64,000 nucleotides of DNA from a virus (taxonomy: Duplodnaviria > Heunggongvirae > Uroviricota > Caudoviricetes), in the IMG/VR virus record IMGVR_UViG_3300045988_145635. The stretch is one strand, 5' to 3'. The notes beneath the pieces were generated by a model, which was given only the letters and a program-made list of their open reading frames with translations, was not told where the DNA came from and did no database searches. Position numbers and translations under genes: made by a program. Shown in pieces: positions 7,834 through 59,200 of this stretch (position 1 is its first letter; the number at the start of each line of letters is the position of its first letter).

Positions 7834-8703
7834 ATGAACTTTACCAAACTGACTGACCACCTGAAACTTGCCACCGATCGTCTCATTGGATTTAAGCCAG
7901 AACCATATGAGTTGCATGAAGGTCATGGTGTAGCTACTGAAAGTATTTACAAGATGGTCGATCAGTTTCATGAACTCTTCCAGCATCCGAGACGCGTTAT
8001 GCCGACACCAGAGCTGCTTCGTCTCCGTGCAAGCCTGATTCATGAAGAAGCTGTAGTGGAAGGTATTCCAGCCGCAATGAATGGGGATATTGAGCAACTG
8101 CTGGATGCAATGGCCGACTTTTTATACGTTGGTGTTGGTACGATGGTCGCCATCAAAGGTGGTATTTCTACCGGCATGACCTATTACACGCAGGAACAGA
8201 GCATTGATCGCTTTATGCAGACAATTTTTGTGCCCGGTAACACTGTTTTCGATGATATGGCAATGCCATTTCAGGAAGCTCGTGAGGCGTCATATATGCT
8301 CGAAGAGCTGGCAGATAAACTTGAGAACAAGACTGTTAAGGATTCTGAGCTGATTCAGGAACTGCGCCGTGTCATGAACAAAATCTATGTGGCGTGCATG
8401 ATGACCTATCGACTGGCTGATTTCCTCGGTATCAATGTAGTCGAGCTGGTTGGCGAAATTCATCGGTCTAACATGACAAAATTATGGCCTGCTGATGTCG
8501 AGGAACGTCGCCAGGCTGTGGCCAACTGCAAATACGACTCTTCAGACCTGGGATTTCGCCATGCTGATGGTACCGATAAGATGATCGGTTTTCGAATTTC
8601 CGATGGAAAGATTCTGAAGTCTCCAACCTATAGTGATGTCGATTTATCCTCCTTTGTTGAGCAAGCTAAAGCCTCAGCAATGTACGGAATGATCAAAAAA
8701 TAA
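7834..8703 (+). CDS. hypothetical protein, possibly MazG-like NTP pyrophosphohydrolase
   Basis: 289-aa ORF with two E/D-rich helical segments (LIHEEAVVEGIPAAMNGDIEQLLDAMADF; LIQELRRVMNKIYVA) resembling all-alpha NTP-PPases; assignment tentative. Confidence 0.4.
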   Translation: MNFTKLTDHLKLATDRLIGFKPEPYELHEGHGVATESIYKMVDQFHELFQHPRRVMPTPELLRLRASLIHEEAVVEGIPAAMNGDIEQLLDAMADFLYVGVGTMVAIKGGISTGMTYYTQEQSIDRFMQTIFVPGNTVFDDMAMPFQEAREASYMLEELADKLENKTVKDSELIQELRRVMNKIYVACMMTYRLADFLGINVVELVGEIHRSNMTKLWPADVEERRQAVANCKYDSSDLGFRHADGTDKMIGFRISDGKILKSPTYSDVDLSSFVEQAKASAMYGMIKK

Positions 8704-9978: not shown

Positions 9979-10392
9979 ATGGCAAGAGGTATGTATGTCT
10001 TATGCGAAATTGAAGGTGTGCTGGCAAATGCCAGCCATCGTAAATCAGTATCTGACGCGGATGCAGGCCAGCTCATTGCCGGTGATGAACTCATTTTCCC
10101 CACCAGCCGTATGTTGCGTGGTTTTGCTCGCTCAGGGGCTGAAGTGGTGCTTATCAGTAGCCGCTCTGAAACTCTTGAAGCGCCAACTAAACGATGGCTG
10201 AAAGATTTTGGCGTTGATTATGACTGGCTTCATCTCGTACCGAATGGCACCAGTTATGAGAAGCATATTAAGCGCACATTAGCGGAGCATAAAGGCGATC
10301 TGCTTATCGCTGCGCTGGTGCACGATCCTCGACTCCGTGCCGCTTTAGCCGACTCTCACCATCGACCGGTCATCTATGAGGTGAGCAAATGA
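9979..10392 (+). CDS. hypothetical protein
   Basis: ATG overlaps the thyA stop (TGATATG); 137 aa; no confident motif. Confidence 0.45.
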   Translation: MARGMYVLCEIEGVLANASHRKSVSDADAGQLIAGDELIFPTSRMLRGFARSGAEVVLISSRSETLEAPTKRWLKDFGVDYDWLHLVPNGTSYEKHIKRTLAEHKGDLLIAALVHDPRLRAALADSHHRPVIYEVSK

Positions 10393-10865
10393 AGATGATC
10401 GCTGCTGTTGGCCGTAACTATGAGATCGGCATAGCGAATGAACTCCCCTGGCGTTGTTCTACCGATCTGAAGCTATTTAAGAGACTCACCAAAAACGCCA
10501 CTGTCGTTATGGGGCGTAAAACGATGGAAAGTCTCAAACGCCCTCTTCCAGAGCGTCATAACCTCGTTTTGACGCGCTCTCATGGCTTTGTACCAAATGG
10601 ATTCTACCCTGCTGGTGTGGATGATGTGTTGCGATTACCAGAGCCTGTGTGGGTGATTGGCGGGGAACAAATTTACTCGCTATTCATGCCGCATGTTGAA
10701 GAGATTTGGCTCTCCCACATCGGCGTTGATGTGCCAAACGCCGATGCATTCTTCCCGGCAAGCATGATGCGTAATTTAGGCTTTGTGCCTGTTGAAACAG
10801 CTTATACCCAACGAGCCAGCGAGGAAGAGCCTGGCTTTTCGCAGATCGTATACAGAAGGTCGTAA
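10389..10865 (+). CDS. dihydrofolate reductase
   Basis: 158 aa; IAAVGRN, LPWRC, VVMGRKT and VIGGEQIY blocks typical of DHFR; translationally coupled to flanking genes. Confidence 0.85.
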   Translation: MKMIAAVGRNYEIGIANELPWRCSTDLKLFKRLTKNATVVMGRKTMESLKRPLPERHNLVLTRSHGFVPNGFYPAGVDDVLRLPEPVWVIGGEQIYSLFMPHVEEIWLSHIGVDVPNADAFFPASMMRNLGFVPVETAYTQRASEEEPGFSQIVYRRS

Positions 10866-11990: not shown

Positions 11991-11999
11991 GGAGTTCTG

Positions 12000-12557
12000 A
12001 TGACAACGATTGTTGCAGGCATCGATATCGAGTCTACGGGACTGGATTTCCTTGCTGGTCATAAAATTATTGAAATCGCAATTACCCGCTATGAACTGGA
12101 GACACAGAGACATATTGATAGTCTGGAGATGCGTTTTAACCCTCGCAGAAACATAGATCCGAAAGCTCAAGCCGTTCATGGCATTTCATTGGAACAGCTC
12201 GCAGCTGAACCTTTGTTGTCAAATCATGCCAGCGAAATTGGCGCTTATATGGGGGCATGTAGTGTGTGGGTTGCTCATAACGGCGAAGCATTTGATATAC
12301 CATTTATTCGACACGAGTTTTCAGGGTATGGAGTAAGACTGCCAGAAGTTCCTGTTATAGATACTATGTTATCGGGATTGTGGGCCACAGAAGACGGTAA
12401 ACGTCCCCGCCTTGAAGAGTTGGCCTTCTCTCTTGGCTTTATATACGATCATGCCAAAGCACATAGTGCCTTATATGACACAAACTTAATGATGCAATGC
12501 TTCTTTAAGGCACGTAATAAGTACGGATTTTTTAAATTACCCTCTGAAATTGTGTAA
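12000..12557 (+). CDS. DnaQ-like 3'-5' exonuclease (DEDDh family)
   Basis: Exo I GIDIESTG, Exo II VAHNGEAFDIPF, Exo III HSALYD motifs. Confidence 0.75.
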   Translation: MTTIVAGIDIESTGLDFLAGHKIIEIAITRYELETQRHIDSLEMRFNPRRNIDPKAQAVHGISLEQLAAEPLLSNHASEIGAYMGACSVWVAHNGEAFDIPFIRHEFSGYGVRLPEVPVIDTMLSGLWATEDGKRPRLEELAFSLGFIYDHAKAHSALYDTNLMMQCFFKARNKYGFFKLPSEIV

Positions 12558-20934: not shown

Positions 20935-21639
20935 ATGAACAACCTCCAGTTAGAGCATTTTAACGTCACAGGCCATTCTGATTTTCCTTTCAAGTTTACA
21001 TTGAAAGGTTATGCAGAGGATGCGGTAGGCCAGATCATTATTGATAAAGGCATCGTTAAGTTTGAGGGGGATTTTGATGAATCCGCGAAAACATTCATAG
21101 ACTTCGTTGCCAAACGTTGGAGCGAGCAATGGAAAAACCTGGAAAAGCGCGCCAATGAGTTTGATCGGTTCATGGATGCAATGGATACAGCAAAAGAGGC
21201 TCTTGATGCCGGGACTCCGTTAGATCTGGAGTCACTTTTCAACGGCGAAGTGGCCTCTGCGATGTTTGCCACCATGTTCGCGGGTGAGTTCGTCCGCAGC
21301 GGTGCCAAAAACTACCTTGAGCTGGATTACAACGTCCCTGCAATTGGCGATTTCGTCGTTACCATCCAACGCAAAGAAGGTAAGACGCCAGGTGAACGCG
21401 TCGCAGAGCTTGAGGCCGTTGTGGATCAGCGTAACGGAGAGTGTGACCGTTTGATCAACGAGCTTCATGCACTTCGGGAAGAAAGAATATGCGCGGGTAG
21501 TAATACACGTAATGCAGCGGATATCTACTTCCAGTTAGTTGAGGAATGCCAGATTCCACCAGGTGGCTCTCTTGTCGATTACGTAAGACATTTAATGGCG
21601 GAAGTTAGCTCCAGCCATAAAGATGGTGAGGTGCGCTGA
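20935..21639 (+). CDS. hypothetical protein
   Basis: 234-aa ORF preceded by a class B palindrome and a purine-rich site. Confidence 0.5.
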   Translation: MNNLQLEHFNVTGHSDFPFKFTLKGYAEDAVGQIIIDKGIVKFEGDFDESAKTFIDFVAKRWSEQWKNLEKRANEFDRFMDAMDTAKEALDAGTPLDLESLFNGEVASAMFATMFAGEFVRSGAKNYLELDYNVPAIGDFVVTIQRKEGKTPGERVAELEAVVDQRNGECDRLINELHALREERICAGSNTRNAADIYFQLVEECQIPPGGSLVDYVRHLMAEVSSSHKDGEVR

Positions 21640-22019: not shown

Positions 22020-22074
22020 ACGCTACAAATCCTTCTGCGTGAATAAATAAAGGCCATAAGTTGTGGCCTTAAAT

Positions 22075-22130
22075 AAATTGTTTTCTGCCTTTTCTTATTT
22101 GTGAAAATAACCACAACTAGAAAACAACGG
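22075..22130 (+). promoter_or_regulatory. class A extended module (AATTGTTTTCTGCC ... TTTGTGAAAAT ... AGAAAACAA)
   Basis: Conserved ~55-bp module also present at 30182-30247 and 34255-34305; ends about 10 nt before ATG 22139. Confidence 0.5.
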
Positions 22131-22138
22131 AGTTAAGA

Positions 22139-22780
22139 ATGTCTAGTATTTCCGAAGCACATATGTTCGCCGCTGGCGCTCATGGTGGCGTTGGTCAGAA
22201 AAGAAAATATACCGGCGAAAACTACATCAACCACCCGGTTGCTGTCCGAGAGATTGTTGCATTGCATGACGGAACCGTGGAGATGCAAATCGCGGCGCTT
22301 CTGCATGATGTGGTCGAAGACACCCATGTAACCATAGAGATGGTTCGTGATCACTTCGGTGAGCGCGTAGCTGAAATGGTTCAGGCTCTGACCAACATTG
22401 CAAGGCCAGAAGACGGCAATCGAATACAGCGTTTCATCATCAATGTCCGGGAGCTGGAGCAAAATCTCGACATGCAGACGCGCATGATCAAGCTGGCTGA
22501 CCTGCTCGACAATACCTCTTCTATCGTGAGTCGCGATCCTGAGTTTTCAGCTATCTACCTTGCAGAGAAAGAGCTGATGCTGGACGTACTTTTTAACGGG
22601 AAGGAGATTGGTGCCAACGCTGATGTTGTCGAGTACATGGAGAGGATAGGTATAGAACACCCGTTGTTATTAAGCGCAAAGGCGAAAGTCACTGAAGGTA
22701 TTGCGCTTCTGAAACCGGTACACATCAAACGTTATGAAAAACACAAATCGCTGATCTGGAGCGCGTGGGAGGCTGCATGA
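22139..22780 (+). CDS. HD-domain (p)ppGpp hydrolase-like protein (RelA/SpoT hydrolase domain only)
   Basis: HPVAVREIV ... AALLHDVVEDT block matching the SpoT/RelA HD hydrolase signature; 213 aa, no synthetase domain. Confidence 0.7.
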   Translation: MSSISEAHMFAAGAHGGVGQKRKYTGENYINHPVAVREIVALHDGTVEMQIAALLHDVVEDTHVTIEMVRDHFGERVAEMVQALTNIARPEDGNRIQRFIINVRELEQNLDMQTRMIKLADLLDNTSSIVSRDPEFSAIYLAEKELMLDVLFNGKEIGANADVVEYMERIGIEHPLLLSAKAKVTEGIALLKPVHIKRYEKHKSLIWSAWEAA

Positions 22781-23319
22781 AGGTCGAAAAAATAGATGTT
22801 CTTTCCTTTGTGCTGACGGATCTGGAACGCCTCGATCCGGTTCGAGTGATGATTGAAAACTACGAACCTGGTAAGGGAAGAATCACCATCACCTGCTACG
22901 GAAAAGCGTGGACTGCGGCTTGGTTTGCTATGGGCGGTGATGATGTGCAGACGTTCATTAAGCGAGTTAGCAACGATTATCTAATCGACAATTTCGACCC
23001 TCAACTGCTAAGCACGGTCGACGATGACAACGATGCAAATCTGCTTTTCGTAAAGTCAGAAATCATAAAGTTACGAAGAGAGAGAGAAATAGACGCCGTA
23101 CTGGCTCGCGAAATGTGGGACGAGGCGGAAAACGCCGATGACGTAAAAGAAAGCTGCTGTTGTTTCGGCGTCGGTAACAAACTGCTGAATCTCTTTGGTG
23201 ATGATCCGTGGTATGCCGACTGGCCAACGGTACCAAACCCGAAATACCAGTATCTGGAACGCATTGTGAACGCGGTACGTGAAGGGCTGAAAGAGTTAGA
23301 TAAGTTAGAGGCATCGTAA
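22777..23319 (+). CDS. hypothetical protein
   Basis: Start set to the ATG overlapping the upstream stop (ATGA). Confidence 0.5.
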   Translation: MKVEKIDVLSFVLTDLERLDPVRVMIENYEPGKGRITITCYGKAWTAAWFAMGGDDVQTFIKRVSNDYLIDNFDPQLLSTVDDDNDANLLFVKSEIIKLRREREIDAVLAREMWDEAENADDVKESCCCFGVGNKLLNLFGDDPWYADWPTVPNPKYQYLERIVNAVREGLKELDKLEAS

Positions 23320-23762
23320 TGAGAGAGAAAATCAAGAACCCGGTCGTCGTATTGTATAAACGGGAAACCAGCGATTCTTATGCGGTATCCATCACTGATG
23401 GAAGCCAGAACATGCACGATGGTCTGCTAATGGCCTCCGTATCTCCTGATGATTCTGACTACCCTTTCGCCACTTTCGCTATGGTTGGTTACTACATGGC
23501 TGCCGAAATTGAGAAGTTGCGTGTTGAGCTGGAGACCGTTAAACAGCGGGAAAAGGATCTGTTTATGGAAAATGTTCGACTTAAGTCAGGTATAGCAGGT
23601 CTGATACACCTCGGTATTCGATATGCGGATGTCGAAGTCATGAAAATAGCTGGAGATGCCCAGCTTTCTACTCCCTGTACTGACAGCATCATAAACAGTA
23701 TTGCATCAGGCGTTTTCACCAAAGAGGGTCAGCATGATGAGAACAGTAGAAGTTCGCGCTGA
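23319..23762 (+). CDS. hypothetical protein
   Basis: 147-aa ORF in the co-directional array. Confidence 0.5.
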   Translation: MREKIKNPVVVLYKRETSDSYAVSITDGSQNMHDGLLMASVSPDDSDYPFATFAMVGYYMAAEIEKLRVELETVKQREKDLFMENVRLKSGIAGLIHLGIRYADVEVMKIAGDAQLSTPCTDSIINSIASGVFTKEGQHDENSRSSR

Positions 23763-26806: not shown

Positions 26807-27907
26807 TCACACTGCGCGGAATGCGATTTCGCCAGGTATTACTTCACCTTGCCAATACATTTGGGCAGCAACGCGATCTGCGAGGTCACGATAAATAGCC
26901 GTAAATTCGCTATCTGGACGACTAATAACGGTTGGTGTTCCGTTATCCAGATCTTCACGAAGAGAGATATGAAGTGGCATTTGGCCTAACAACTGCGTGT
27001 TGTATTTCTCGGCCAGTTTCTGTGCGCCACCGGTGCCAAAAATTGGCTCGTGATGACCGCAGTTACTGCAAATATGCACACTCATGTTTTCGACGATACC
27101 CAGTACCGGCACTTCGACTTTTTCGAACATCACAATGCCTTTCTTCGCATCGATCAGCGCGATGTCTTGCGGCGTAGTTACCACAACCGCACCAGTTACA
27201 GGAATGTTCTGCGCCAGCGTCAACTGAATATCACCAGTGCCCGGCGGCATATCGAGAACGAGATAGTCCAGATCAGGCCATAGAGTTTCCTGCAACATCT
27301 GCATCAGCGCCTTGCTGGCCATCGGTCCACGCCACACCATTGCATTGTCGTCGGTGACCAGATAACCAATAGAGTTGGTTGCCAGGCCATGAGACATGAT
27401 AGGTGCCATGTGAGTACCGTCCGGTGAGGTTGGACGTTGGTTTTCCGCGCCCAGCATGGTTGGAATTGATGGACCATAGATATCGGCATCCAAAATACCA
27501 ACTTTCGCACCTTCAGCAGCCAACGCCAGTGCCAGATTTACCGCCGTGGAGGATTTACCTACGCCGCCCTTGCCTGAGCTGACGGCGATAATGTTCTTAA
27601 CGCCATTAATGCCTGGTTGGTTTTTGACGCGCTTAAGCGTGGCAATGTTGTACGACAGCTTCCAGTCAATAGCCTTTGCGCCAGTGATACGGAGCAGATC
27701 ACCACTACATTGCTCTTTCAGGTCTTCAAAAGGCTTATTCCACACGAAAGGCATGATTAGTTCGACATGCAGTGTGTCATCCATCAACGCAACATGGTGT
27801 AACGCTTTAAGCGTAGTCAGGTTGTGTTTCAGGGTTGGGTGCTGAAAATTAGCCAGCGTACCGGCTACCATTGCTCTCAGGGCATCCGGCGATTTGGACT
27901 CGCTCAT
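26807..27907 (-). CDS. apbC: Fe-S cluster carrier ATPase Mrp/ApbC (host-type)
   Basis: 366-aa protein that matches recalled enterobacterial Mrp almost throughout (SGKGGVGKSSTAVNLALAL, CSNCGHHEPIFG); divergent from metG as in enterobacterial chromosomes. Confidence 0.95.
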   Translation of the reverse strand: MSESKSPDALRAMVAGTLANFQHPTLKHNLTTLKALHHVALMDDTLHVELIMPFVWNKPFEDLKEQCSGDLLRITGAKAIDWKLSYNIATLKRVKNQPGINGVKNIIAVSSGKGGVGKSSTAVNLALALAAEGAKVGILDADIYGPSIPTMLGAENQRPTSPDGTHMAPIMSHGLATNSIGYLVTDDNAMVWRGPMASKALMQMLQETLWPDLDYLVLDMPPGTGDIQLTLAQNIPVTGAVVVTTPQDIALIDAKKGIVMFEKVEVPVLGIVENMSVHICSNCGHHEPIFGTGGAQKLAEKYNTQLLGQMPLHISLREDLDNGTPTVISRPDSEFTAIYRDLADRVAAQMYWQGEVIPGEIAFRAV

Positions 27908-28064: not shown

Positions 28065-30098
28065 ATGACCCAAGTCGCGAAGAAAATTCTGGTGACGTGC
28101 GCGCTGCCGTACGCTAACGGCTCAATCCACCTCGGCCATATGCTGGAGCACATCCAGGCTGATGTCTGGGTTCGTTACCAGCGAATGCGCGGCCACGAGG
28201 TTAATTTCATCTGTGCCGACGATGCCCACGGTACGCCGATCATGCTGAAAGCGCAGCAGCTTGGTATCACACCGGAGCAGATGATTGGCGAAATGAGTCA
28301 GGAACACCAGACTGATTTCGCAGGCTTTAACATCAGCTATGACAACTATCACTCGACGCACAGCGAAGAGAACCGTCAGTTGTCTGAGCTTATCTATACT
28401 CGCCTGAAAGAGAACGGTTTTATTAAAAACCGCACTATCTCTCAGTTGTACGACCCGGAAAAAGGCATGTTCCTGCCGGATCGTTTTGTAAAAGGCACCT
28501 GCCCGAAATGTAAAGCGCCAGATCAATACGGCGATAACTGTGAAGTCTGCGGCGCAACATATAGCCCGACTGAATTGATCGAGCCGAAATCGGTGGTTTC
28601 TGGCGCTACCCCGGTAATGCGTGATTCCGAACACTTCTTCTTTGATCTGCCTTCTTTCAGCGAAATGTTGCAGGCATGGACCCGCAGCGGCGCGTTGCAG
28701 GAGCAGGTGGCGAACAAAATGCAGGAATGGTTTGAATCCGGCCTGCAACAGTGGGATATCTCCCGCGATGCGCCTTACTTCGGTTTTGAAATTCCGGACG
28801 CGCCGGGCAAATATTTCTACGTCTGGCTGGACGCGCCGATTGGCTACATGGGTTCCTTCAAGAATCTGTGCGACAAGCGCGGCGATACCACCAGCTTCGA
28901 TGAATACTGGAAGAAAGACTCCACCGCCGAGCTGTACCACTTCATCGGTAAAGATATTGTTTACTTCCACAGCCTGTTCTGGCCTGCCATGCTGGAAGGC
29001 AGCAACTTCCGCAAGCCGACCAACCTGTTTGTTCACGGCTATGTGACAGTGAACGGCGCGAAGATGTCCAAGTCTCGCGGTACCTTTATTAAAGCCAGCA
29101 CCTGGCTGAATCATTTTGACGCCGACAGCCTGCGTTACTACTACACTGCGAAACTCTCTTCGCGCATTGATGATATCGATCTCAACCTGGAGGATTTCGT
29201 TCAGCGCGTGAATGCCGATATCGTGAACAAAGTGGTTAACCTGGCCTCCCGTAATGCAGGCTTTATCAACAAGCGTTTTGACGGCGTGCTGGCAAGCGAA
29301 CTGGCTGACCCGCAACTGTACAAAACCTTTACTGATGCCGCTGAAGTGATTGGCGAAGCATGGGAAAGCCGCGAATTTGGTAAAGCTATCCGTGAAATCA
29401 TGGCATTGGCTGACCTGGCTAACCGCTATGTCGATGAACAGGCTCCGTGGGTGGTGGCGAAGCAGGAAGGGCGCGATGCCGATCTGCAGGCGATTTGCTC
29501 TATGGGCATTAACCTGTTCCGCGTGCTGATGACGTACCTGAAACCGGTACTGCCGAAACTGACTGAACGTGCAGAAGCATTCCTGAATACAGAACTGACC
29601 TGGGATGGTATCCAGCAACCGCTGCTGGGCCATAAAGTGAATCCGTTCAAGGCACTGTATAACCGTATCGATATGAAACAGGTGGAAGCACTGGTGGAAG
29701 CATCCAAAGAAGAAGTGAAAGCCACAGCCGCACCGGTAACTGGCCCACTGGCTGACGACCCGATTCAGGAAACCATCACCTTTGACGACTTCGCCAAAGT
29801 TGACCTGCGTGTGGCGCTGATTGAAAACGCGGAGTTTGTTGAAGGCTCTGACAAACTGCTGCGTCTGACACTGGATCTCGGTGGGGAAAAGCGTAATGTC
29901 TTCTCAGGCATCCGTTCTGCTTATCCCGACCCACAGGCATTGATTGGTCGTCACACCATTATGGTGGCTAACCTGGCTCCGCGTAAAATGCGCTTCGGTA
30001 TCTCCGAAGGCATGGTGATGGCTGCTGGCCCCGGCGGGAAAGATATCTTCCTGTTAAGCCCGGATGCTGGTGCTAAACCTGGCCACCAGGTTAAGTAA
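28065..30098 (+). CDS. metG: methionine--tRNA ligase (host-type)
   Basis: 677-aa protein from [25 protein letters not shown] to the C-terminal tRNA-binding domain; essentially identical to recalled E. coli MetG with a handful of substitutions; HIGH and KMSKS motifs present. Confidence 0.97.
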
Positions 30099-30250: not shown

Positions 30251-30559
30251 GTGGTTGAAATGTTGAACATTACCCAAGCCTACCAGGTGGCATTGATCAG
30301 TTCATCTCATACATCAGAGGAAGATGCTCGTCGATTCATGATCGCAAGCAATGAGCTGGATTGGGTTTCGCAAATTGACGGCGGTTGTATTGTCCACGCC
30401 GGGTTACAGGATGATGTCTGGAAAGACGACTTGCGTCGATATGGTATATCCGAAGGCGCGATTGCTAACATTCAGAAAGTACTTGATGTAGGCTTTGACT
30501 CTGTACATTTTGATTGTGGTGCGCCGGTCGTTGAAGGGCTTGAGTGCTGGAACTGGTAA
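30251..30559 (+). CDS. hypothetical protein
   Basis: 102-aa ORF directly downstream of a class A module. Confidence 0.5.
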   Translation: MVEMLNITQAYQVALISSSHTSEEDARRFMIASNELDWVSQIDGGCIVHAGLQDDVWKDDLRRYGISEGAIANIQKVLDVGFDSVHFDCGAPVVEGLECWNW

Positions 30560-30604
30560 CAGATATTAAAGCATTGGTAGTTTGTTTTTAGGATTATCAA
30601 AGAA

Positions 30605-31339
30605 ATGAAAAAGTTGAAAAGTTTAGAAATCCCTGGGACTGGTTATAAATTCTTTATGGACAACGCGGAGTGTGCACCTAACGCGTTGGAAAAAATACAA
30701 AGTCTTATCAACAGCCTTACTGAAGAAGCGAAAGAACTGAAGAGCGAGGCGACAAAGGACAATACAGCTAAAATCCAATGCTTAAATCTCGTTTCTTATT
30801 GTTTATATCAAGTGTCCAAGACACTGATTAAAGGCAATATCTATTACGACGATGAAGACACCTCGACACCTGAAGAAAAAGATAGCGATGAAGAACTCTA
30901 TGAAGATATCTCTACTAGTGCGGGTCACGCTGCCTTCGATGCTATGGGTAAATCGTCAGGCATCAGATCATTTGTTGAACAGAACAATTCGACAATAATG
31001 ATTGAGTACTGTGAACAAACAAGCTCCAAGGCCATACATGTTCTTCACGATGTTGCTGCAGGGGTTCGCTGTGAGGCTGAAGCGGTCAGAAAAGATGTAT
31101 TTGGTGCAGACAGTAATACCGTGAAAGCGTTCATCAACAGTGCTCTGCTAAATTCTTACTCAAACCTTATCGTCAATGCGGCACTATGCGCAAATTCTGG
31201 TGAAGAACACATTGTCATAACCGAAACCAAATATGAGCATCAACAGTCACCAACCATAGAAGAGGTAACTGCATTGGCTATCAAACAGGCGAGTGAAATT
31301 AGTGATGAAATTCTCTCTCTGCTAAACAAAACTAAGTAA
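30605..31339 (+). CDS. hypothetical protein
   Basis: 244-aa ORF with plausible ribosome-binding site. Confidence 0.5.
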   Translation: MKKLKSLEIPGTGYKFFMDNAECAPNALEKIQSLINSLTEEAKELKSEATKDNTAKIQCLNLVSYCLYQVSKTLIKGNIYYDDEDTSTPEEKDSDEELYEDISTSAGHAAFDAMGKSSGIRSFVEQNNSTIMIEYCEQTSSKAIHVLHDVAAGVRCEAEAVRKDVFGADSNTVKAFINSALLNSYSNLIVNAALCANSGEEHIVITETKYEHQQSPTIEEVTALAIKQASEISDEILSLLNKTK

Positions 31340-56275: not shown

Positions 56276-59200
56276 CAAGGGAATGTCACAAAACGTAGAG
56301 TTTATCCTGTCGCTGGAAGACAAACAGTTTACAGCGTCAATCGATCGTGCGGGGAAACTGCTTACTCGATTTGGTGAGCAGGTAACAAAGCCTGCTCAAA
56401 AAATCCAAACCTTTGAACGCTCTTTGGGTTCGGTCGCCCGTATCATTGGCGTTCTGGAAAGCAAGCTCGATTCTACGGCAGATAAACTACAGGATGTAGC
56501 TGCCGGTTTTGAGCTTGCTTCAGATGCTACGCGTAAAATGCGTGGCAACATCACCAGCCTCAATTCTGGTCTTAAAGCCCTGATTGAGCGCGTCGATACG
56601 ACAACTTCTTCAGTAGATAAACTCACCGCGTCATTACGTAAAGTGCAATCAGAGCTAAATGATTTCTCTGATTGGGCGACCTATGCAAGCAAAAGCGCAA
56701 GCCGCTTTGGTACGGAGGTCAAAGAAGCCTCTGTGTCCGTGAGTGGCATGAATACGCGCCTTAATACCACGACGAAGCGACTCAGTAATTGGGGTGTCAC
56801 AACGAGTCAGGCTGCCGAGGGACTGAAAAAGGTTCGTGAGCAGATGGACGAAGTTATCGGACGTCAGCAACTGATTAGCAAGCCGGTACGCGTTCGTACA
56901 TCTGGAAGTGGCGATGGTGGTAGCGGGCGGCGTAGCGGCGCTTCTGGCCATAGCGGTAAAAGTAACGAAGGAGGTATGTTCTCTGGCCTTCGTGGCAACA
57001 TTTTCCTGCTTGGCGAGATCGGAGATGCAGCCAGAACGGTTACTGACATCATGTTTGGGTGGCAGAAGCCTATTGTTGAAGCTGCGGCCGAAATGGAACG
57101 TATGCGGGTGATGCTTCGAGGGTTGAATAAGGAGAAGTCCAACCCGGGCCAGGCTGCCGCTGATGATATGAAGTACATCGTAGACATGGCTCAAAATGCG
57201 CCGTTCGCGATGCAGGCGTTAACAGACTCCTTCGTGAAGTTTCGTTCTGCTGGCTTAGATCCAACCGATGGTTCTCTGAAGGCGCTGGTGGACTCCGTTG
57301 CTCGTTTTGGTGGTGATAGTGAGCTGTTGAAACGTGCGGCTGTGGCCGTTCAGCAGATGTCCGGTAAGGGCGTTGTGTCAATGGAAGAGCTACGTCAGCA
57401 ATTAGGTGAAGCCGTTCCTAACGCGATGCAGGCAATGGCAGACGCCGCAGGCATCACTATGGGGGAACTGACTAAAGCCGTTGCCAGCGGTACGGTTGAG
57501 GCAAAACAGGCGTTGTCTCTGATGTTTGTTGGTCTGCGTGCGGAGAATGAGAACGCAGCGAAAGACATGATGCAAACCTACACAGGTGCGCTGGCGCAAC
57601 TTCAGACGTCATTCACGTTATTTGCTGATCGGGTTGGTCAGGCCGGATATCTGGATTCTCTATCGAAGGGGATGAAAGAACTGGCTTCAATCATGAATAG
57701 CGCCGAAGGGATTTCGTTTGCCAATTCTTTAGGTTCGGGGTTAACAACGGCAATCGATGGGTTGCGTCAGCTTGCTCAATGGTTAGCAAAGAACCAAGAG
57801 CTGGTAATTAATCTCGGTAAGGTCGTGGCCGCGATGGTTGCGTTCAAACTGATGCGAGCAGGGATCATGGGGGTAGTTGGCGCTGGGAGCCAGATGGTTA
57901 GCACCTTTGCCACTATGGCGACCGCCATACAGACTCCATTTAACCTCGGCGCTACAGCAGTAACTCGATTCAATCGTGCGGCACGTATGGGGCTGGCTCC
58001 GATCCCCTCTCTTATTTTCGCCATCCGTGGGGCGATTACGGGGCTTAAAGGCGCTTTTGCTGGCTTGACTGCGTTTATTGCGGCGAATCCGATAGGTTTT
58101 GTTTTCACTGCTGCAATGACCGCTGTTGCTGGCTTAATCACGTATATGACCATGCTTCGTAGCGAAACTTCAAAGGTCGTTGACGAGATTAGGAAAATAC
58201 CAGAAGCGATGACGGCGGCCAAACGTGCACAGATGGCGGAGTATAAAGCGCGTCTCGAGCAACAAATCACGCAAAAGGAACAACAGTTAAAATCTGGCGA
58301 AAAGGTGGTTTATGGGCCGGGTATGGCCGGAACCACAGTAAAGATTGATCAGGATGAACGGAAGCGAATAGAAACTGGGCTAAATGATCTTCGTAAGGAA
58401 CTCGATAAAACTACTGGGGCTATTGAACGTGGAGACACAGCTGTTGCAAAACGTCTTGCAAAAGATGCGGCAGAATCACAGATAGAGAAAATACTCGAAG
58501 AGAATAAAGACTTTGCGGCAACATTCGTTAAATCTCGTCAGGAGGCTCTGGAGAAGATTCAGAAAATCAAGGATGACGGTTCACTTTCAGATGACGAAAA
58601 GAACAAGCTATTGGCACCGTTACGTGAAACGGTAAACAAAAGCTATCTGAAACCAGCGCAAGAATTGGTTGATTCACTTTCTTCTCGTAAGAATGCTGTC
58701 GAGGGGCAAATAGCCACTCTTAATGATCAGCTTGAAAAAGCGAAAAAGGAAGGAAACACCGAGCAGATCAAGAAACTGCAAGGCAGTATTCGTGGTTATC
58801 AGGAGAATTTGGAAGTCGTCGCTCAGGAACTGACTCAGGCAGAGTTTAAGAGGGATAACGCGGCCAAAAGTGGTAATGGCTTAATGTCAGTCAATGGAGA
58901 TGTTCTTGGGTTAGGTACAACTGATAAAGCTGCTCAGAAGGCGCTGGCGCAATATATGCGAAACCAGATGGATTCTGCGACTTATCAACGTACTTTGCCT
59001 GACGGCACTCCGATGATGGACTTCGAAGGTAAGCCGATTATTGGGCCTAAACAACTCAAGACGCAGCTTAATTTGCAGAAAGCATCCAGTGCCAGCTCTC
59101 TGGAGAAAATGAGCGATGAAGAGCGTGCCGCAGCCATTGCCGCACTGACTAAAGCTCGTGAACAGGATGCAGCAGCAGCCGAGAAAGCAGCCCAACGATC

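Follow-up and report, generated by a model that had tools for sequence, protein, structure and literature searches.

A PaSpo-type small alarmone hydrolase on an SSU5-like phage-plasmid of Escherichia coli, with a likely role in counter-defence

The IMG/VR virus record IMGVR_UViG_3300045988_145635 provides a stretch of 64,000 nucleotides from a virus of the Caudoviricetes, referred to here as the window, which encodes a small protein of the RelA/SpoT homologue (RSH) hydrolase type. The window is about 98% identical to, and colinear with, the 108.5-kb avian pathogenic E. coli (APEC) plasmid NZ_CP126951.1. It is an SSU5-like phage-plasmid of E. coli, and the relatives of the element include Salmonella phage SSU5, Escherichia phages Cyrano and CMS-2020a, pECOH89 and the S. 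Typhi plasmid pHCM2. The hydrolase gene, which in complete E. coli genomes is found on plasmids only, lies within a long run of early or accessory genes on the same strand, in the order DUF4942 methylase, Ea22-like open reading frame (ORF), Eaa-like ORF, hydrolase, 180-codon ORF, and further Ea22-like and DUF551 ORFs. Its product is already known: it is the E. coli orthologue of a named and experimentally used enzyme, PaSpo.

The hydrolase ORF (Table 1) starts with ATG and ends with TGA. Residues 32-40 of the protein read HPVAVREIV and residues 52-62 read AALLHDVVEDT, the signature from which the initial annotation, made from the letters of the window, had recognised an RSH hydrolase domain without a synthetase domain and proposed a candidate small alarmone hydrolase (SAH). 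The six-frame translation of the whole window contains the HDxxED motif once, at nt 22304; none of its frames has the hallmark of synthetases, E[VILM]Q[IVLM]R[TS]. The Pfam domains of the protein are of the HD type only, with no synthetase, TGS or ACT domain among them. Because it is only 213 residues long and the window holds no synthetase hallmark, the hydrolase is regarded as a stand-alone SAH.

Profile searches agree with the signature. Pfam HD_4 (PF13328) matches residues 8-135 (E=1.2e-18; 67.8 bits, cut-off 27.2), the generic HD domain is matched too, and NCBIfam TIGR00691 (spoT_relA) is matched with E=1.2e-24. Since TIGR00691 aligns only over profile positions 1-123 of 687, which are its hydrolase part, and the SpoT equivalog NF008303 only over positions 23-152 of 702, the match is confined to the hydrolase segment of these profiles. 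In PHROGs the protein falls into phrog_990, 'metal-dependent phosphohydrolase' (E=1.4e-54). The similarity to the RSH family is far above chance. In a sequence search of the PDB, 22 of the 24 matches were RSH hydrolase domains or SAHs, including SpoT of A. baumannii (7qps/7qpr), Rel of M. tuberculosis, S. equisimilis, T. thermophilus, B. subtilis and S. aureus, human and fly MESH1, and the bacterial SAHs 7qoe, 7qoc, 6yvc, 6z3n and 7smg.

Alignment of the His-Asp metal ligands was the check that the initial annotation had recommended. In a HMMER alignment, H32, H56-D57, E60-D61, D121 and N125 of the hydrolase fall on H35, H61-D62, E65-D66, D122 and N126 of MESH1, positions which, as established by the published MESH1 and Rel structures, supply four ligands for Mn2+, the Glu-Asp pair of catalysis and an Asn that binds substrate. 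All of the ligands and the catalytic pair are present. Across 45 relatives aligned with MAFFT, which are 43-88% identical to the window hydrolase, R22, Y24, Y29, H32, P33, H56, E60, D61, T62, K118, D121, N125 and E143 are invariant and D57 is kept in at least 90% of the sequences; the conserved substrate-binding residues Arg (R22) and Asn (N125) are thus both present and both invariant. The AlphaFold2 model built on this alignment consists of twelve helices (mean pLDDT 97, pTM 0.92), and when it is searched against the PDB with Foldseek, every one of the 50 highest-ranking matches is an RSH hydrolase domain. Human MESH1 comes first (3nr1; TM-score 0.82 on the target, root-mean-square deviation 2.4 Å), followed by a P. 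aeruginosa SAH, C. glutamicum RelH, an L. levettii SAH, T. thermophilus Rel and SpoT; the matches include the NADPH and PAPS (3'-phosphoadenosine 5'-phosphosulfate) complexes of MESH1, 5vxa and 9chy. Judged from its sequence, the protein is a single-domain RSH, that is, a stand-alone SAH, with its predicted active site intact, and the enzyme encoded in the window is real and probably active.

Table 1. Coordinates of the hydrolase gene and of the features in and around it (positions in the 64,000-nt window)
Feature	Coordinates	Strand	Basis and remarks
Small alarmone hydrolase coding sequence (PaSpo orthologue)	22139..22780	+	ORF, 213 aa; HD_4, N-terminal part of TIGR00691, phrog_990
Shine-Dalgarno sequence GGAG	22129..22132	+	Read from the sequence; 6 nt 5' of the hydrolase ATG; conserved in SSU5
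Codon of His32, predicted first Mn2+ ligand (= MESH1 His35)	22232..22234	+	HMMER alignment to 3nr1; invariant in 45 sequences
Codons 56-61, HDVVED: predicted metal ligands His56-Asp57 and catalytic pair Glu60-Asp61	22304..22321	+	Alignments and motif scan
Codons 121-125, DLLDN: predicted fourth metal ligand Asp121 (= MESH1 Asp122) and Asn125 (= MESH1 Asn126)	22499..22513	+	Both residues invariant
C-terminal extension, residues 161-213, three predicted helices	22619..22777	+	Alignment, model and dN/dS
GC-rich hairpin in the intergenic region that separates the hydrolase gene from its upstream neighbour	22050..22070	not assigned	Conserved in SSU5 and Cyrano
Downstream 180-aa ORF	22777..23319	+	ATG overlaps the hydrolase stop codon (ATGA); C-terminal half of Ea22-like phrog_3451
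Variable two-gene cassette (hydrolase and downstream ORF), missing from Escherichia phage Cyrano	22114..23365	+	blastn; homology ends at 22113 and resumes at 23366

A tblastn search of 50,697 phage records, 247 of which contain HD_4 homologues, returned one close match, SSU5_099 (AFL47026.1) of Salmonella phage SSU5, with 87.3% amino acid identity over 100% of the query. SSU5_099 is annotated as 'putative guanosine polyphosphate pyrophosphohydrolase/synthetase', is the sole match within the SSU5 genome and is identical to the protein of S. Typhi pHCM2. The definition of the paSpo subgroup goes back to Atkinson et al. 2011 (PMC3153485), and the SSU5 SAH was assigned to PaSpo by Jimmy et al. 2020 (PMC7229694). 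Since SSU5_099 is the only RSH-like match in the SSU5 genome, we infer that it is the SAH named PaSpo. By its sequence relationships, the window hydrolase belongs to the PaSpo subfamily and is the E. coli phage-plasmid orthologue of SSU5 PaSpo. The two proteins differ at 27 positions, all outside the invariant columns, and 17 of these differences fall in the C-terminal residues 161-213. The SAH candidate of the initial annotation is an RSH hydrolase by profile, by structure and by orthology to PaSpo.

Much of what can be said about the activity of such proteins comes from published work. When expressed in E. coli, the stand-alone phage SAHs PaSpo (SSU5) and PbcSpo (PVP-SE1) neutralise five out of five toxic small alarmone synthetases (toxSAS) tested, namely CapRel, PhRel, PhRel2, FaRel2 and FaRel (PMC7229694), and Jimmy et al. 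2020 proposed that incoming phages encoding alarmone hydrolases could bypass alarmone-mediated defence (PMC7229694). According to Kurata et al. 2021, four of these five toxins pyrophosphorylate tRNA at its 3'-CCA end, and the SAHs MESH1 and ATfaRel restore the aminoacylation of pyrophosphorylated tRNA in vitro; in the same study PaSpo was used to permit the production of PhRel2. Co-expression of PaSpo allows the purification of CapRelSJ46, PhRel2 and FaRel2, and it was stated by the authors that PaSpo removes the tRNA modification installed by FaRel2. The roles suggested in the initial annotation, reprogramming of host stringent signalling or degradation of alarmone-type defence signals, had therefore already been proposed in the literature, and have been demonstrated in part, as toxSAS neutralisation, for the 87%-identical PaSpo (PMC7229694). 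The initial annotation had missed that the orthologue is named and in experimental use, that the element is a phage-plasmid on which the gene is accessory, and that 3'-pyrophosphorylated tRNA, instead of free alarmone, may be the substrate that matters.

The hydrolase gene is accessory, and its distribution is patchy. Of 5426 complete E. coli genomes, 239 have an SSU5-type terminase and 41 have the SAH, which is full length in 36; the SAH is carried by about 17% of the E. coli SSU5-like elements, versus about 83% of the Salmonella ones. Among PLSDB records, the ratio of SAH to terminase is 39/47 in Salmonella, 41/84 in Enterobacter, 14/25 in Citrobacter and 48/206 in Escherichia. For Yersinia (0/62) and Klebsiella (0/27) the values show no more than how sensitive megablast is; in Klebsiella the elements do have an orthologue, 51% identical, which sits immediately upstream of the DUF4942 gene among different neighbours. 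Identical copies of the hydrolase gene are found on several independent plasmids. Decayed copies are frequent in other phage-plasmids and take several forms: an in-frame deletion fusing the N-terminus of an AAA-ATPase to the SAH (P0010), in-frame deletions that fuse an Ea22-like N-terminus to it (P0012-14), a truncated form of 139 aa that recurs on 139 contigs (P0011), a change of HD to HG (P0009), a Y140stop allele in C. freundii (locus L015, 701-1342) and a D61V allele in E. asburiae (locus L019, 701-1342). Next to the stop-codon and D61V alleles, the downstream gene stays intact.

Where the gene is kept, it is under constraint. When the Escherichia-type allele is compared with SSU5-type alleles, the Nei-Gojobori ratio of nonsynonymous to synonymous substitution rates (dN/dS) comes to 0.18 for the whole gene, with 0.11 in residues 1-135 and about 0.30 in residues 161-213. 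Purifying selection acts on all parts of the gene, in a more relaxed form on the C-terminal extension. Positive selection had been suspected as nucleotide and amino acid identity to SSU5 are both about 87%, and is rejected by these ratios (0.18 and 0.30). The extension, with helices predicted at residues 161-170, 175-189 and 193-212, occurs only in the proteins of about 210 aa from enterobacterial SSU5-like elements and contigs of about 110 kb; distant relatives are about 170 aa long and lack it.

No toxSAS or other RSH synthetase partner was found in the window by the six-frame motif scan, or in the annotation of the ~98%-identical plasmid, and none adjoins the Klebsiella or marine orthologues in the neighbourhoods that were examined. 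Because no toxSAS gene occurs in the window or beside the distant orthologues, the hydrolase is an orphan SAH and not a cognate antitoxin. PADLOC gave no match for the hydrolase or its small neighbours. There are reports of fused CapRel defences from Salmonella phage SJ46, from E. coli prophages and from Enterobacter and Klebsiella. The CapRelSJ46 gene itself (KU760857, J46_0058; locus L022, 6389-7510) is present in 14 of 5426 complete E. coli genomes, on plasmids only, mostly of about 95 kb (P1-like phage-plasmids), and its homologues are found on 89 PLSDB plasmids, 67 of them from Escherichia. This plasmid location suggests that conflict between P1-like and SSU5-like phage-plasmids is possible.

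We are confident, short of certainty, that the window hydrolase is a catalytically competent, Mn2+-dependent SAH of the PaSpo subfamily whose most likely role is counter-defence against toxSAS. The substrates of this allele and its native role in infection or lysogeny are inferred. Like other RSH hydrolase domains, it would be expected to cleave the 3'-diphosphate off purine nucleotides that are pyrophosphorylated at the 3' position, such as (p)ppGpp and (pp)pApp, and, by analogy with MESH1 and ATfaRel, off tRNA that translation-targeting toxSAS have pyrophosphorylated at the 3'-CCA end. It would in this manner undo the output of abortive-infection or superinfection-exclusion systems of the CapRel, PhRel or FaRel type, which rival prophages and P1-like phage-plasmids carry in the same enterobacterial hosts. 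A counter-defence role is supported by the reports of CapRel defences and by the CapRelSJ46 plasmids, elements that compete for the same hosts, and by the patchy accessory distribution that is usual for counter-defence genes. A lowered level of host (p)ppGpp would be a second effect, compatible with counter-defence.

Several points weigh against this interpretation. We found no paper on the native phage-plasmid role, or on the infection phenotype, of PaSpo or of another phage SAH. The published neutralisation by PaSpo rests on expression from plasmids, and the data are those of the orthologue, not of the window allele. The removal of pyrophosphate from tRNA by PaSpo is asserted in the manner of a methods statement, the in vitro data coming from MESH1 and ATfaRel, and base or substrate preference is not readable from the hydrolase sequence. 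CapRelSJ46 is rare in E. coli (0.3% of complete genomes). Finally, since it is absent from most E. coli SSU5-like elements, about 80% of them, and has decayed repeatedly, the hydrolase is dispensable. A narrower version of the counter-defence reading can be put forward only tentatively: PaSpo might be a weapon in conflicts between phage-plasmids, with which SSU5-like elements would persist in, or enter, cells where resident P1-like phage-plasmids or prophages encode fused CapRel-type toxSAS, and its fast-evolving C-terminal extension of three helices, peculiar to the enterobacterial proteins, would adapt it to pyrophosphorylated tRNA and not to free alarmones. If true, PaSpo would be a dedicated tRNA-repair anti-defence enzyme and not a modulator of the stringent response.

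The remainder of the element has the gene content of a phage-plasmid. Over the window, the annotation of NZ_CP126951.1 lists terminase, portal, capsid, tail and ParB-type partition genes, together with nrdAB, thyA, dfrA51, RNase HI, metG and the DUF4942 methylase. Colinearity with this plasmid is interrupted at 11995-12379, 30559-31338 and 57850-59145, which are further small variable segments. A dihydrofolate reductase gene (10389-10865, + strand), the trimethoprim-resistant DfrA51 according to the near-identical plasmid, stands beside thymidylate synthase and nrdAB. Among nrdAB, thyA and dfrA51 there is also a gene (7834..8703, + strand) for a 289-aa protein with a MazG-like PRA-PH domain (PF01503, E=7e-9), possibly a second nucleotide- or alarmone-degrading enzyme on the element, comparable to the phage protein Atd1. 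A full-length methionine-tRNA ligase gene, metG, encoding 677 aa with a tRNA_bind domain, occupies 28065-30098 (+ strand), and an apbC-like gene lies at 26807-27907 (- strand); an aminoacyl-tRNA synthetase borne by a phage is of note alongside a hydrolase thought to repair tRNA 3' ends.

It is against this background that a main role in host physiology has to be considered, in which hydrolysis of (p)ppGpp would block the stringent response and favour either lytic replication or the stable maintenance of the plasmid-prophage. The closest relatives in sequence and structure do include the true (p)ppGpp hydrolases SpoT, Rel and MESH1, the gene stands among early genes of nucleotide and DNA metabolism, and the MazG-like PRA-PH gene is on the same element; depletion of (p)ppGpp by phages has precedents in the MazG-like Atd1 and in the inhibition of RelA/SpoT by a portal protein. 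On the other hand, E. coli has a SpoT of its own, neutralisation of toxSAS is what has been demonstrated for the orthologue, and a patchy accessory distribution fits a niche-specific weapon better than core physiology. Such a role is plausible, compatible with counter-defence and less specific to the data; as the main function of the gene we consider it rather doubtful.

Much less probable is that the substrate is NADPH or PAPS, the enzyme being a 3'- or 2'-phosphatase as has been reported for metazoan MESH1. SAHs are known to be promiscuous (PMC9765508), and the best structural matches of the model are to MESH1, the NADPH and PAPS complexes 5vxa and 9chy among them. However, at only 26-28% identity MESH1 is no nearer to the protein than bacterial SAHs or SpoT are, and the orthologue rescues cells from five RSH toxins, all of whose products carry 3'-pyrophosphates.

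The surroundings of the gene were analysed on both sides. Upstream, the intergenic leader is conserved in SSU5 and Cyrano up to 22113, although the flanks differ. It contains the hairpin listed in Table 1, which has a 9-bp stem and is probably a terminator or an RNA-stability element, and a possible second, long-range stem that ends just 5' of the ribosome binding site. The segment 22040-22140 (minimum free energy -22.3 kcal/mol, z=-3.6) folds better than shuffled controls. That the leader might be a repeated sequence marking module boundaries was rejected, there being no second copy in the window, and so was a known RNA, since the only Rfam match, DapZ at 22.5 bits versus a gathering score of 56 (E=0.5), is a chance one. 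Because no sigma-70-like promoter is predicted on the + strand between 20800 and 24700, no dedicated promoter is claimed for the hydrolase gene. The hydrolase gene and the ORF downstream of it form a cassette of 1.25 kb that is lacking at the counterpart position in Cyrano (locus L003, 3615-3705), and partial matches suggest that CMS-2020a and PhiR41_1 lack it as well. The downstream ORF covers positions 105-282 of the 287 positions of phrog_3451, and the N-terminus of the upstream 234-aa ORF (20935-21639) covers positions 13-101, so that it looks as if splitting or recombination had left the two parts of an Ea22-like gene on either side of the Eaa-like and hydrolase genes, a mosaicism typical of the lambdoid ea-region.

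The 4-nt overlap between the hydrolase and the downstream ORF, which are translationally coupled, recurs in Salmonella, Enterobacter, Citrobacter and E. coli elements and is absent beside the Klebsiella orthologue. Together with the existence of SAH antitoxins such as ATfaRel, this conserved pairing could be read as a local toxin-antitoxin module in which the hydrolase protects against the downstream protein, a reading that has very little to recommend it once the downstream protein is considered. This has no RSH synthetase motif, no Pfam domain and no PADLOC match; it is the C-terminal half of an Ea22-like phage family, it is encoded in the 40-kb coliphage EC.W1-9 where there is no hydrolase, and the hydrolase orthologues of Klebsiella and marine origin have no such ORF downstream. 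Moreover, the stop-codon and D61V alleles of the hydrolase persist beside an intact downstream gene. The downstream ORF was therefore rejected as a conserved partner, as a member of an Ea22-like fragment family unlinked to the hydrolase outside this clade. Equally improbable is that the window copy is an inactive remnant or pseudo-enzyme, as are several of its relatives (deletion fusions, HD to HG, D61V, Y140stop), given that it is full length with all catalytic residues intact, that dN/dS is 0.11-0.18 and that identical copies are found on several independent plasmids.

In itself, the identification adds little, as the PaSpo subfamily has been recognised since 2011, the SSU5 orthologue has been in print since 2020 and in wide use as a tool to neutralise toxSAS, and a bypass of alarmone or toxSAS defence by phage SAHs has already been proposed in the literature. 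SSU5-like phage-plasmids are clinically common, being represented by S. Typhi pHCM2 and by carriers of CTX-M-15 such as pECOH89. The remaining interest lies in the protection that PaSpo may confer against the CapRel-type systems of competing P1-like phage-plasmids, in a hydrolase that has been kept in most Salmonella elements and lost or decayed in most E. coli ones, and in its clade-specific C-terminal extension.

The window protein can be placed among known alarmone-degrading systems as follows. The phage MazG-like enzyme Atd1 depletes (p)ppGpp as an anti-defence activity, proposed to lower alarmones so as to escape abortive infection, and has an unrelated fold (MazG/PRA-PH versus HD). E. 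coli SpoT and Rel (7qpr, 1vj7, 6s2u) possess a homologous HD hydrolase domain with the same catalytic residues; unlike the window hydrolase, they are proteins of about 700 aa in which synthetase, TGS and ACT domains regulate the hydrolase. Human and Drosophila MESH1 (3nr1, 5vxa, 3nqw) share the single-domain RSH fold and an identical H...HD...ED...D...N active site, but they are metazoan proteins with about 26-28% identity, lack the C-terminal extension (about 35-50 residues) and have a reported NADPH phosphatase activity. ATfaRel of Cellulomonas marina, the SAH-type, type IV antitoxin of FaRel, is a stand-alone SAH that, like PaSpo, neutralises all tested toxSAS, which it does by degrading the toxin products; its gene adjoins that of its cognate toxSAS, whereas the window gene and its distant orthologues have no toxSAS neighbour. 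PbcSpo of Salmonella phage PVP-SE1 is an orphan phage SAH that neutralises toxSAS as PaSpo does, and the SAHs of jumbo and other phages are likewise grouped with it; these proteins belong to a different SAH subfamily, come from virulent phages and have less than 50% identity to the window protein. The closest system is SSU5 PaSpo itself. Apart from the 27 substitutions and the host, Salmonella versus Escherichia, it is the same kind of protein in the same place: 213 aa long, 87% identical over the full length with all catalytic and invariant residues identical, and encoded downstream of a DUF4942 methylase and Ea22/Eaa-like genes, with the same overlapping gene downstream.

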